Shown in pieces: positions 35,378 through 39,640 of a stretch of 64,000 bases of DNA. The notes beneath the pieces were generated by a model that saw nothing but the letters and a program-made list of their open reading frames with translations, had not been told where the DNA came from and did no database searches. The translations under genes and the position numbers were made by a program. Numbering within the stretch: position 1 is the first letter of the stretch; each line of letters starts with the position of its first letter. Origin of the DNA: Escherichia coli (GTDB taxonomy: Bacteria > Pseudomonadota > Gammaproteobacteria > Enterobacterales > Enterobacteriaceae); the NCBI RefSeq assembly GCF_044324875.1, contig NZ_CP172185.1; one strand, given 5' to 3'.

Positions 35378-35385
35378 TTTGTTCG

Positions 35386-35418
35386 ATCAACGATCCTGAC
35401 ATGGGCAGGATCGTTGAT
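35386..35418. terminator. Bidirectional hairpin between convergent ytfE and downstream accessory gene (13-bp perfect stem ATCAACGATCCTG / CAGGATCGTTGAT, 7-nt loop)
   Basis: Inverted repeat read directly from sequence 9 bp after ytfE stop and 4 bp before the stop of ORF 35422..36906. Confidence 0.6.
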
Positions 35419-35421
35419 TAT

Positions 35422-36906
35422 TCAGTCATTCAGTGGAAATAATTCATTGTTGTAACTGGTGTACTCACCTTCAACGGTAAGCAAACTGCCGTTTTTATCA
35501 AGATGCGCCGCATCGAGTTGTCGAGTCTCATTACGCCGCTTCGCATCACGTACCAGTCCATCGCCTACGTAATAAATATAGTGGTCATCATGAGCAAAGG
35601 TATCTGATAATTGACCATTGGCGTATTTAAACCACGTCCATTGGCCTTTCAGTTCAAAATGCTCAACCGTGTCTTCATCAATAAAATACGTATAGCGATC
35701 GTCATGTGCTAAATAATTTAATGGTGTGCCATCGGGGCTTTTATACCACTGCCATTGCCCATTAATATCAAAAATAGTCACATCATCGCTCGCAATGAAA
35801 TAAACTTTATCCCCTACAATATTAACACCTTCCTGTAATTCTTGTTGCGGGTCTGGTAAATGAATGACCGACAGCGTTTTTTCGACCGCAGAAACATACT
35901 TCACCAGATAGAGCGAATCTTTATATTGCGCCACATTCTCCGTCAGCGGGCGAAAATATTCCGGATCAACATCAGGAATAGTCGCAACCCGGCAGTCATT
36001 AGCACGCCTGGAAGCATCACGCGTCAACCATGTTACTTTATCCCGCTGCAGGTCAAACGTACTCCGACAATTTTTACCGAACGCATAACGTTTCTCCCCG
36101 TCTTTATCGCGATAAATTAGCAGTGAACCGGCTATCCAGCGCACAATATGAAAGGTATCCGGATCGGCGTTGATGGCATCTCCATTCACAAAGACCTGTG
36201 ATTTAGTCCGCCAGATTGTATCCCAGGGTCCCGGATTACTTTTGCTTTGGCAGCTATTGGGGGAAAATAAAATAATTCGTCGGTCCCAGGATTTAACGCC
36301 AAGAATAGAATACCCTTGCGCACTGCCCAACCAGTGCCCCTGAAAGTAAATATTGTGACGATCTTTCAGCACATCCGCGGAATCACCTGAACCGCCGACT
36401 TGTTGCAACGAATCCATATCGACCTGCTTTTCGTCGCGATTATCATCCGTGCGTTCACCATCAAAATAGAGACTATCTTTATCGGCGGCAAAACGCCCCC
36501 ACGCGCGGAATGTTGCAACATCAACTTTCGGTGTTCCCGGCGGGTTCTGGACTATTTTCCCTGCCCATAAAATATGGCGGCCATCGGTTAACCAGTCGAA
36601 ACGCCAGCCGCCATTTGACCGATAGCCAGAGAAGGGAGCCACCCGCACAAAATCATTATTGATATCATCAGGTGAATCGTATTCACCATCAGTGCCGTTG
36701 GGTACGCGGCGAAGTTGTTTGAACTTTACCTGCGGCAAATGAATATCCGGAAAATCGATACCGTAACCGTCACTATCTTCAACGATATATTTTGTGCCTT
36801 GCCCCCACGGCTGGTAGTAAAACGCAGCATAAGGCACGCCGGAGCAGGCTATCGAAGCGGTTGAAAATAAAGCCAGTGCGAGACAAACGGGTTTAATTGG
36901 CAACAT
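35422..36906 (-). CDS. Secreted hypothetical protein with DKNYY-like repeats (paralog A), 494 aa
   Basis: Long ORF with AGGA RBS 9 nt upstream of ATG 36904-36906; N-terminal signal peptide MLPIKPVCLALALFSTASIAC; repeated D-K-x-x-Y-F/Y motifs (ADKDSLYFDG, KDRHNIYFQG, RDKDGEKRYAFG, YKDSLYLVKY, GDKVYFIASDD) and two C-terminal ~34-aa repeats (GQWQWYK...AHDDRYTYF / GQWTWFK...AHDDHYIYY). Family assignment is by motif eye-match only. Confidence 0.8.
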   Translation of the reverse strand: MLPIKPVCLALALFSTASIACSGVPYAAFYYQPWGQGTKYIVEDSDGYGIDFPDIHLPQVKFKQLRRVPNGTDGEYDSPDDINNDFVRVAPFSGYRSNGGWRFDWLTDGRHILWAGKIVQNPPGTPKVDVATFRAWGRFAADKDSLYFDGERTDDNRDEKQVDMDSLQQVGGSGDSADVLKDRHNIYFQGHWLGSAQGYSILGVKSWDRRIILFSPNSCQSKSNPGPWDTIWRTKSQVFVNGDAINADPDTFHIVRWIAGSLLIYRDKDGEKRYAFGKNCRSTFDLQRDKVTWLTRDASRRANDCRVATIPDVDPEYFRPLTENVAQYKDSLYLVKYVSAVEKTLSVIHLPDPQQELQEGVNIVGDKVYFIASDDVTIFDINGQWQWYKSPDGTPLNYLAHDDRYTYFIDEDTVEHFELKGQWTWFKYANGQLSDTFAHDDHYIYYVGDGLVRDAKRRNETRQLDAAHLDKNGSLLTVEGEYTSYNNELFPLND

Positions 36907-36939
36907 AGCATCATCCTGAAGCTGTTAGCGTGTAAGAGG

Positions 36940-38103
36940 TTATTTAAATAAGGGTTTCAGACCGCTCGGGGGTTGCTTCACCGTAGACCATTCTGCTGAA
37001 ATGGGGTTGTAACGCAGCCATTCAGTTTGCTCGTAGTGTTTTCCGTCGATTGTGGTTAATCCACTAAGTTCGTGACTGTAGAGTTGCCCGTCTGTAGTGA
37101 TATACATGTAGCCAGTTACCATGCTTTCCCTATCTAATAATTCAAAAACATCCTCTGGCTTGGGTGTTATCAGTTCACCTTCACCTAATGCATTGGTTTT
37201 AACCTTATAGAATTGATCTTTGTAATAGCCTACCGACCCGGTAAGTAAGGTAAAATATTCCGGATCAACTCCTTTAAGCGTTTCATAAACACAATCACTG
37301 CCCGCAGGCGTCGCTTCTTGTTTGAGCCTGGACACATTCTTCAAACCGATATTAAATAACGCACAACTGTGACCAATATCTTCCAACGTATAGTCATGCT
37401 CGCCGCTTTTATCGCGATAAACTAACCGTTCGCCAGGCATCCAGCGGATTATCTGAAAGGTTTTGCGATCGGCGGGCAGCGGCTTGCCATTAACAATCAC
37501 CTGCGAATTTGTCATTACAACAAATTGCAGGGATGAATCATGCCGCAGGATTTGAAACCCGTCAGCGCTGCCCAACCAGTGCCCCTTATGCCAAAGACTA
37601 TTTTTATCACGCAGTAAATTCCAGATGTCCGTCTCTTCAAGCGTTGACATATCCACCTGCTTATCACCGCTATTATCATCGGTACGCTGGCCGTCAAAAT
37701 AGATACTGCGTTTATCAGCAGCGAAAGCGCCGAATGCCTTAAAACTGGCGGCATCGACATTAGGTTCACCGGATGGATTTTTCAGGACTTTGCCTGCCCA
37801 AAGGACAGAACGTCCATCGGTGAGCCAGGTATGCTGGCAATCCCCCTCGTCATCACAGTCGAACTTATCGGGATTAAAATCGGAGAGCAGCCGGGTTTCT
37901 TGTTTATTGGCTAAATTGGCAATGCGCCAGAGGCGGGAAAAATTAACGTCTGGTAATTCGGAGAGGATCTCATCTTCTTTTCCCTTCTGTTCGGCAACGT
38001 AAACCGTGCCTTTTTCATGCTGGCGGTAATAAAAATCCGCGCCCCAGGAAGGTGAAATGGAGAGAGGTAATGCGGCGATTAATAACCAACTGCGCTTAAC
38101 CAT
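36940..38103 (-). CDS. Secreted hypothetical protein with DKNYY-like repeats (paralog B), ~387 aa
   Basis: ORF track 36940..38331; I place the start at ATG 38101-38103 where a signal peptide begins (MVKRSWLLIAALPLSISPSWGA), avoiding overlap with cycA; colinear with paralog A (WLTDGRSVLWAGKVLKNPSGEPNVDAASFKAFGAFAADKRSIYFDGQRTDDNSGDKQVDM vs WLTDGRHILWAGKIVQNPPGTPKVDVATFRAWGRFAADKDSLYFDGERTDDNRDEKQVDM). Confidence 0.75.
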   Translation of the reverse strand: MVKRSWLLIAALPLSISPSWGADFYYRQHEKGTVYVAEQKGKEDEILSELPDVNFSRLWRIANLANKQETRLLSDFNPDKFDCDDEGDCQHTWLTDGRSVLWAGKVLKNPSGEPNVDAASFKAFGAFAADKRSIYFDGQRTDDNSGDKQVDMSTLEETDIWNLLRDKNSLWHKGHWLGSADGFQILRHDSSLQFVVMTNSQVIVNGKPLPADRKTFQIIRWMPGERLVYRDKSGEHDYTLEDIGHSCALFNIGLKNVSRLKQEATPAGSDCVYETLKGVDPEYFTLLTGSVGYYKDQFYKVKTNALGEGELITPKPEDVFELLDRESMVTGYMYITTDGQLYSHELSGLTTIDGKHYEQTEWLRYNPISAEWSTVKQPPSGLKPLFK

Positions 38104-38185
38104 AGTGAACTCTGCAACGAGTGGCAAAGATTCACGGTAAGCTCGCGCCTGAGGGCTGTCTATGATGGTAGATATTTTTAAGAAT

Positions 38186-38217
38186 ATATAAAGACAAAGG
38201 CACCCGCAGGTGCCTTT
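38186..38217 (-). terminator. cycA terminator hairpin (9-bp stem AAAGGCACC / GGTGCCTTT)
   Basis: Inverted repeat 20-40 bp downstream of cycA stop on minus strand followed by T-rich tract (TTTGTCTTTATATATTCTT). Confidence 0.55.
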
Positions 38218-38236
38218 CAGAGCTATAAACGCAGCA

Positions 38237-39640
38237 TTACTTCGCCATGCGTTTTTTACCAATAAACAACCAGCCCAGCCCCAGAGCGATAAACCACAGC
38301 GGGGTAACCAGCAGCGCCTGGCGGGTATCATCTTCCAGTGTCAGCAGCACGACCACGAACACAAAGAATGCCATACATACCCAGCACATCAGCTTGCCGA
38401 GCGGCATCTTGTAGATCGACTTATCATGCAGGTGTGGACGCTGTTTGCGGTACACCAGGTACGAGCAAAGGATAATCGTCCAGACGAACATAAACAGAAT
38501 CGCGGAAACGGTTGTAATCATCGTGAACGCGCCAATCACGCTGGGATTCACATACAACATCACCACGCCGCCGAGCAGACAGATACAAGAGAAGGTCAGC
38601 CCTTTCGCGGGTACTGCGCGCTTAGAGAGTTTAGCGAACGCTTTCGGTGCCACACCTTCCTGCGCCAGACCAAACAGCATACGGCTGGTAGAGAAGACAC
38701 CGCTGTTAGCGGAAGACGCCGCAGAGGTCAGCACCACAAAGTTGATCACGCTGGCAGCCGCAGGCAAACCTACCAACACAAACAGCTCAACGAACGGGCT
38801 TTTCTCCGGGACTACCGAACTCCACGGCGTCACGGACATAATCACAATCAACGCGAAGACGTAGAACATAATGATACGGATCGGAATGGAGTTAATCGCG
38901 CGTGGCAGTGATTTCTCTGGATCTTTGGTTTCCGCAGCTGTTGTACCTACCAGCTCAATCCCCACGAAAGCGAAAACCGCTATCTGGAATCCGGCAAAGA
39001 AGCCACTTAAACCTTTCGGGAACCAGCCGCCGTCATTCCACAAATGCGCGAATGACGCTTCTACACCGGTCGGTGACTGAAAGTGCATCGCCACCATGAC
39101 CAGGCCGACGACTATCAGCGACACAATGGCGACGATTTTGATCATCGCAAACCAGAACTCCATCTCACCGAACATTTTCACGGTGGCGAGGTTGAGCGTC
39201 AGCAGCAGCACTATCACCGCCAGCGAGGCGACCCAGTCGGAGAGATCGGGGAACCAGAACTGAGCATAAGCCGTGATCGCCACCACGTCTGCCATACCGG
39301 TTACAACCCAGCAGAACCAGTAAGTCCAGCCGGTGAAATATCCTGCCCACGGCCCGAGTAAATCGGAAGCGAAGTCACTAAAAGATTTGTATTCCAGATT
39401 CGAAAGCAGCAATTCCCCCATTGCCCGCATCACGAAAAAGAGCATAAAACCAATGATCATATAAACAAAAATGATCGACGGCCCGGCAAGGCTAATCGTT
39501 TTGCCGGACCCCATAAACAACCCCGTACCAATGGCACCGCCAATGGCAATAAGCTGAATATGTCGGTTTGTGAGATTGCGCCGTAGCGACTGTTCAGCCG
39601 GAGCCTGATCATCGGCAACGACTTTTACCTGATCTACCAT
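38237..39640 (-). CDS. cycA: D-serine/D-alanine/glycine:H+ symporter (APC family)
   Basis: 467-aa ORF MVDQVKVVADDQAPAEQSLRRNLTNRHIQLIAIGGAIGTGLFMGSG... amino-acid permease signature. Confidence 0.96.
   Translation of the reverse strand: MVDQVKVVADDQAPAEQSLRRNLTNRHIQLIAIGGAIGTGLFMGSGKTISLAGPSIIFVYMIIGFMLFFVMRAMGELLLSNLEYKSFSDFASDLLGPWAGYFTGWTYWFCWVVTGMADVVAITAYAQFWFPDLSDWVASLAVIVLLLTLNLATVKMFGEMEFWFAMIKIVAIVSLIVVGLVMVAMHFQSPTGVEASFAHLWNDGGWFPKGLSGFFAGFQIAVFAFVGIELVGTTAAETKDPEKSLPRAINSIPIRIIMFYVFALIVIMSVTPWSSVVPEKSPFVELFVLVGLPAAASVINFVVLTSAASSANSGVFSTSRMLFGLAQEGVAPKAFAKLSKRAVPAKGLTFSCICLLGGVVMLYVNPSVIGAFTMITTVSAILFMFVWTIILCSYLVYRKQRPHLHDKSIYKMPLGKLMCWVCMAFFVFVVVLLTLEDDTRQALLVTPLWFIALGLGWLFIGKKRMAK

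Follow-up and report, generated by a model that had tools for sequence, protein, structure and literature searches.

A probable in-frame duplication of a blade-like unit in a predicted DKNYY-family lipoprotein of Escherichia

Genes A and B between cycA and ytfE

We analyzed a 64,000-nucleotide stretch of Escherichia coli DNA (contig NZ_CP172185.1 of assembly GCF_044324875.1; hereafter the window), in which two paralogous genes, here called A and B, sit on the minus strand between the convergent genes ytfE and cycA. The region is part of the E. coli chromosome, with cpdB, ytfH, qorB, ytfF and ytfE on one side of the pair and cycA and fklB on the other. Near its C-terminus, protein A carries two adjoining units of 38 residues that resemble one another. 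It is likely that this repeat arose when one blade-like beta unit was duplicated in tandem and in frame, long ago and only in Escherichia, in a predicted lipoprotein of the DKNYY family. The features of the pair are as follows.

35422..36906, minus strand: gene A, 494 aa, RefSeq WP_000936773.1 "hypothetical protein" (open reading frame and RefSeq annotation)
36844..36906, minus strand: predicted signal peptide and lipobox of A, residues 1-21, ending ...TASIA followed by C21-S-G
35668..35781, minus strand: repeat unit 1, A residues 376-413, VTIFDINGQWQWYKSPDGTPLNYLAHDDRYTYFIDEDT
35554..35667, minus strand: repeat unit 2, A residues 414-451, VEHFELKGQWTWFKYANGQLSDTFAHDDHYIYYVGDGL
35425..35553, minus strand: C-terminal tail of A, residues 452-494, ...RRNETRQLDAAHLDKNGSLLTVEGEYTSYNNELFPLND, common to one-unit homologs (alignment A1, columns 520-598)
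36940..38103, minus strand: gene B, 387 aa, WP_000240846.1 "DKNYY domain-containing protein" (RefSeq start)

Gene B lies upstream of gene A on the same strand with a gap of 33 nt, and the two may form a B-to-A operon. The N-terminus of A matches a PROSITE-style lipobox expression (ASIAC, then SG), and A is probably an exported lipoprotein. Cys-Ser-Gly is kept in 15/15 A-type sequences (the window protein to P0021) and the strict pattern in 12 of these; most A-type homologs keep xLAC-SG. A Pseudocitrobacter homolog bears the UniRef name "Lipoprotein". Placement of A in the outer membrane is suggested by the Ser at position +2, under the textbook +2 sorting rule. B has a signal of the signal-peptidase-I type with no Cys in the signal region (B-type signals end in WG followed by A, N or K), and is probably a soluble periplasmic paralog.

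The repeat and its predicted fold

The first-pass annotation had described a direct repeat of 34-residue strings, one directly after the other, at positions 35557-35767. Both strings exist. The first (FDINGQW...FIDED) corresponds to A residues 379-412 (window 35671-35772) and the second (FELKGQW...YVGDG) to residues 417-450 (window 35557-35658), with 13/34 amino acids identical. They are not adjacent: a spacer of four residues, TVEH, lies between them, and the true period is 38 aa. The upper end of the interval falls 5 nt short of 35772. Over the full 38 codons, units 1 and 2 share 14/38 amino acids (37%) and 68/114 nucleotides (60%). The motif [FL]AHDDxYxY[FY] is present in each.

The repeat is real at the protein level. 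Smith-Waterman alignment (BLOSUM62) of the two C-terminal halves of A pairs the units with a score of 93, a value reached by 0/2000 shuffles (24.8 +/- 4.8, maximum 49). At the DNA level, unit 2 has 68 identities with unit 1, compared to 31.1 +/- 5.2 (maximum 44) with the remaining in-frame windows of 38 codons in the gene. A hidden Markov model (HMM) of the unit finds unit 1 with an i-E-value of 2.4e-23 and unit 2 with 2.6e-24. No significant partner of either unit was found in the remainder of A or in B, and B ends differently and without units, as the first-pass annotation had said.

Tandem Repeats Finder (TRF) reported no tandem repeat at the DNA level; thus, we infer that the duplication is old and diverged. 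Some observations could be taken to point to chance similarity, recent slippage or an assembly artefact: the units are just 37% identical in amino acids, TRF returned nothing, and the unit pair was not reported when the C-terminal halves were compared by BLASTP (word size 2, otherwise default-like). However, the shuffle and in-frame-window tests are decisive for a real repeat, and a DNA identity of 60% excludes a recent event or an artefact. Both units are present at full coverage in 268 complete E. coli genomes and also in E. albertii, and two E. coli alleles (the window allele and that of strain XDL) do not differ by any nonsynonymous change in the unit region. We give virtually no credence to chance, slippage or artefact.

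Structure prediction with AlphaFold2 (AF2) gives an all-beta model for full-length A, with a predicted local distance difference test score (pLDDT) of 81 and a predicted template modelling score (pTM) of 0.74; ten-residue blocks over the units score 86-91. Each unit is predicted to form four short strands, at 376-380, 386-389, 395-401 and 405-409 in unit 1 and at 414-418, 424-427, 433-439 and 443-446 in unit 2. The C-terminal 183 residues modelled in isolation (pLDDT 90.5, pTM 0.78) likewise have four short strands per unit. Turns of 3-5 residues link the strands within a unit. In size (~38-40 residues), strand number, antiparallel order and tight turns, the predicted units resemble the blades of beta-propellers (BamB/PQQ-type, WD40).

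Structure searches gave just weak matches to beta-propellers, and Foldseek returned nothing with TM >0.17. Over short alignments the superposition is good: two consecutive units fit two-blade fragments of 2yms_D and 6r5x_A over 56 residues at 2.7-3.0 A, and 77-78 residues fit other propellers at 3.4-4.1 A. Sequence profile search of the PDB found nothing significant. Of the properties of a beta-propeller, the predicted structure has repeated four-stranded antiparallel blades of ~40 residues, and the searches gave no global superposition on the closed toroid of known propellers. We read the models as indicating propeller-type blades, but we do not recognise the protein in its entirety as a closed propeller. 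Propellers classically gain blades by tandem duplication. We know of no solved structure for the DKNYY family. In a Pfam scan of the C-terminal 165 aa and of the 78-aa two-unit segment at E up to 10, the one hit was to the NlpE N-terminal domain (NlpE_N, PF04170, gathering threshold 22 bits); its scores of 16.6 and 14.7 bits (E 0.015-0.057) were dismissed as chance.

The first-pass annotation had interpreted the aromatic pattern of the units as that of a carbohydrate- or surface-binding module. Under this explanation, the two units are a lectin-like or cell-wall-binding repeat appended to A. W-x-W and Y-x-Y do occur in each unit, and as aromatic-rich (Gly/Trp/Tyr) beta-hairpin repeats the units recall choline- and glucan-binding repeats of the CW_binding_1 type. 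Lectins are known among beta-propeller and beta-hairpin repeat proteins, and Foldseek weakly matched choline-binding CbpF (2v04, E 9.7e-3) and the glucan-binding region of the dextransucrase DSR-E (3tto, E 2.3e-2). However, no carbohydrate-binding module, lectin or cell-wall-binding Pfam profile matched the C-terminal region at E up to 10. The W-x-W and Y-x-Y positions fall inside predicted beta-strands, and homologs have Leu or Met at the first Trp, as would suit packing better than ligand stacking. We consider such a module improbable.

The DKNYY family and the number of units

Both proteins are recognised by the Pfam model DKNYY (PF13644, gathering threshold 25 bits), A with 32.3 bits and B with 27.0 bits, and B is so named by RefSeq. 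The match spans only the middle of each protein (residues 160-329 in A), and the model does not reach the C-terminal repeat region of A. A and B are 36% identical over A residues 27-383, where the alignment stops. The N-terminal halves hold the signature motifs AADKDSLYFDG and LKDRHNIYFQG. The first of these (AADKDSLYF, A residues 140-148) is nearly invariant in the 31-sequence alignment A1, with D142, Y147 and F148 invariant and K143 conserved in at least 90%; LKDRHNIYF is a second copy of the DKNYY-type motif in the N-terminal half of A.

It is possible that the units are simply two more DKNYY repeats and that A is one continuous array with no distinct C-terminal module. The unit motif AHDDxYxY[FY] resembles AADKDSLYF and LKDRHNIYF, although Asp replaces Lys, and motif spacing is similar (36-41 aa). 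Alignment with hhalign places A residues 367-454 colinearly on 102-196, with the two AHDD motifs on the DK and DR motifs, and the best N-terminal match of the unit profile is a canonical DKNYY repeat (residues 112-152). Opposed to this, the hhalign values (E 0.06-0.12, from single comparisons) are not significant, the unit HMM scores the N-terminal motifs at i-E-values of just 0.045-1.6, and the Pfam match is limited to the segment given above, with no DKNYY match at E up to 10 for A residues 330-494 or for the two units alone. A shared origin of the units and the DKNYY repeats is plausible. We give the continuous array slightly less than an even chance; it is compatible with the duplication of a blade-like unit and not opposed to it.

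Relatives were sought by word-indexed search with A, by profile search with the family alignment and by exhaustive HMMER search with the C-terminal 165 aa. The enterobacterial branch is small: clustering at 90% identity gives just 46 clusters, and all members that bear an organism name belong to Enterobacterales. Its genes form tandem arrays of two to four paralogs. Arrays of DKNYY-like paralogs always lie between core genes (L003, 4543-7410; L004-L006, 4526-7326; L009, 5001-7863; L012, 911-6392), and no neighbouring gene from outside the family is conserved beside the arrays examined. Pseudocitrobacter and Leminorella each have a paralog pair, other E. coli have a second pair between lptM and cyaY, and Klebsiella spallanzanii has four paralogs in a row at the lptM locus. 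Several relatives are much longer than A (P0025, P0028, P0030, P0031 and P0034; 617-695 aa, ~150-200 residues more).

As the first-pass annotation had proposed that a comparison of homologs might reveal, the number of units varies: it is 0, 1 or 2, depending on paralog and genus. In alignment A1, a clean insertion of 38 columns is confined to the window protein and P0001-P0003 (E. coli and E. albertii; 494-505 aa). All 25 other sequences having the C-terminal region contain exactly one unit (e.g., P0007, unit GPLVWFKNPDGSLSDEFAHDDRYLYY), and the two B-type sequences in the alignment contain none. Overall, the unit is absent from the B-type proteins (B, P0039 and the products of the genes upstream at L003 and L010), in both genera where such a protein was looked at. 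The profile and exhaustive searches found no further multi-unit member of the family. Thus, the suggestion that a module was gained or lost between the copies holds in this form: A-type proteins usually have a single unit, a second copy is seen only in Escherichia, and B-type proteins have no unit.

The exhaustive search gave 12 hits, and those from outside the family (P0048-P0053) were rejected as homologs. They are giant repetitive proteins (cadherin-like, SpaA, SBBP propeller and DUF5711) whose scores sum many weak stretches. A loosely similar blade-like pattern was seen in two of them.

One-unit and two-unit forms occur at the same locus. P0007 (465 aa, one unit) is 62% identical to A, and its gene stands in the order fklB-cycA-[B-type, 381 aa]-[A-type, 465 aa]-ytfE-ytfF, matching the window. 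Because the flanking genes match those of the window at 77-80% DNA identity, this scaffold seems to come from another enterobacterial genus. In E. albertii this locus holds a two-unit protein, and B is a frameshifted pseudogene (L011, 3741-6518).

The last 30 residues of unit 2 have 16-18 matches to the single unit of P0007, P0009, P0010 and P0012, and those of unit 1 have 10-13. Identity between the two units within a species is 13-14/38, lower than that between species (16-22/38); therefore, the duplication predates the split of E. coli and E. albertii. Concerted evolution of the units was rejected on the same values.

Variation, proposed history and the A/B cassette

The window and XDL (L007) alleles of gene A are 91.7% identical in DNA, and their Nei-Gojobori dN/dS of 0.2 shows that the gene is under purifying selection. 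Divergence between them is mosaic (dS 0.83 over residues 25-110, 0.02 over the units at residues 375-452), which suggests intragenic recombination. The pattern is reversed in the comparison of E. coli with E. albertii, where residues 25-374 are 83-93% identical and the units plus tail (C-terminal 120 residues) just 46-61%. These values indicate fast evolution or replacement of the repeat region between the two species.

Unit numbers of 0, 1 or 2, together with the low identity of the C-terminal region relative to the rest of A, could also be read as signs that A and B are an envelope pair (an outer-membrane lipoprotein and a periplasmic paralog) with a blade-built fold that has no solved relative, in which the C-terminal blades are a variable determinant of specificity. 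If so, A would have a diversifying interaction with an external partner (a phage, bacteriocin or host factor). We hold this to be unlikely.

In our preferred explanation, which we regard as likely, 38 codons (114 bp) from the 3' portion of gene A would have been duplicated in tandem and in frame. The duplicated segment is predicted to be one complete four-stranded antiparallel beta-meander of the beta-propeller-blade kind, and its AHDDxYxY motif is reminiscent of the DKNYY signature of the N-terminal half. A pre-existing family unit would thus have been copied, and no new type of domain added. The extra unit would add one blade to an open arc of such repeats, and the longer arc could conceivably enlarge or re-space a surface that binds a protein or ligand.

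Several points weigh against this explanation. The fold is a prediction from shallow alignments (24-31 sequences) and not a solved structure. Homology of the units to the N-terminal DKNYY repeats has no statistical support, and Pfam does not extend the family to the C-terminal region (see above). The lipoprotein assignment is based on sequence pattern, and P0001 and P0003, which have Asn at position -4, fail the strict lipobox expression. Finally, a literature search for DKNYY and PF13644 returned nothing on the function of any DKNYY protein, and a role as a binding surface is pure conjecture.

The locus offers a natural example of the growth of a repeat protein by one unit, as one-unit and two-unit forms occur at the same place with a zero-unit paralog adjoining. 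It also allows WP_000936773.1 ("hypothetical protein") to be flagged as a predicted lipoprotein of the DKNYY family, and it shows that the Enterobacterales members of that family are exported paralogs in small tandem arrays. The results are of use chiefly for annotation and for those who set out to study DKNYY proteins; the case is one of ordinary repeat-protein evolution and answers no long-standing question.

The A/B pair occupies a 2.86-kb accessory segment (window 35378-38236). In K-12, the interval between cycA and ytfE is just 44 bp. Gene A was found in 270/5426 complete E. coli genomes, with alleles in classes of at least 99%, 90-95% and 80-90% DNA identity, and 268 genomes have the two-gene region at a query coverage of at least 80%. 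Because E. albertii and another enterobacterium have the same locus occupied, the cassette may be ancestral at cycA-ytfE and lost from most E. coli. NCBIfam has no family for A or B, and PADLOC found no match to a defence system. Two sequence elements lie at the edges of the cassette.

38196..38217, minus strand: terminator-like hairpin 3' of cycA, upstream boundary of the A/B cassette
35388..35416, no strand assigned: inverted repeat CAACGATCCTG / CAGGATCGTTG with perfect 11-bp arms, where the convergent genes ytfE and A meet, between their stop codons

The inverted repeat could act as a shared bidirectional terminator of ytfE and A; it is absent from the list produced by the pattern scan, perhaps for want of a T-run. 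The mechanical open reading frame of B (36940-38331, minus strand, 463 aa) is over-extended at its N-terminus by 76 codons, which overlap the cycA terminator hairpin. The RefSeq start (ATG 38103, MVKRSW...) gives a normal signal peptide.

Gene A is broken in some strains. IS5 interrupts it in three (H1-H3, e.g., NZ_CP043406.1), and other broken forms are frameshifted (357-364 aa). In strain SCPM-O-B-7615 (L008, NZ_CP144926.1, 1746-3604), IS1 truncates the 3' end of A, so that the repeat region is gone, and an integrase gene and tRNA-Leu stand in place of the ytfE side.
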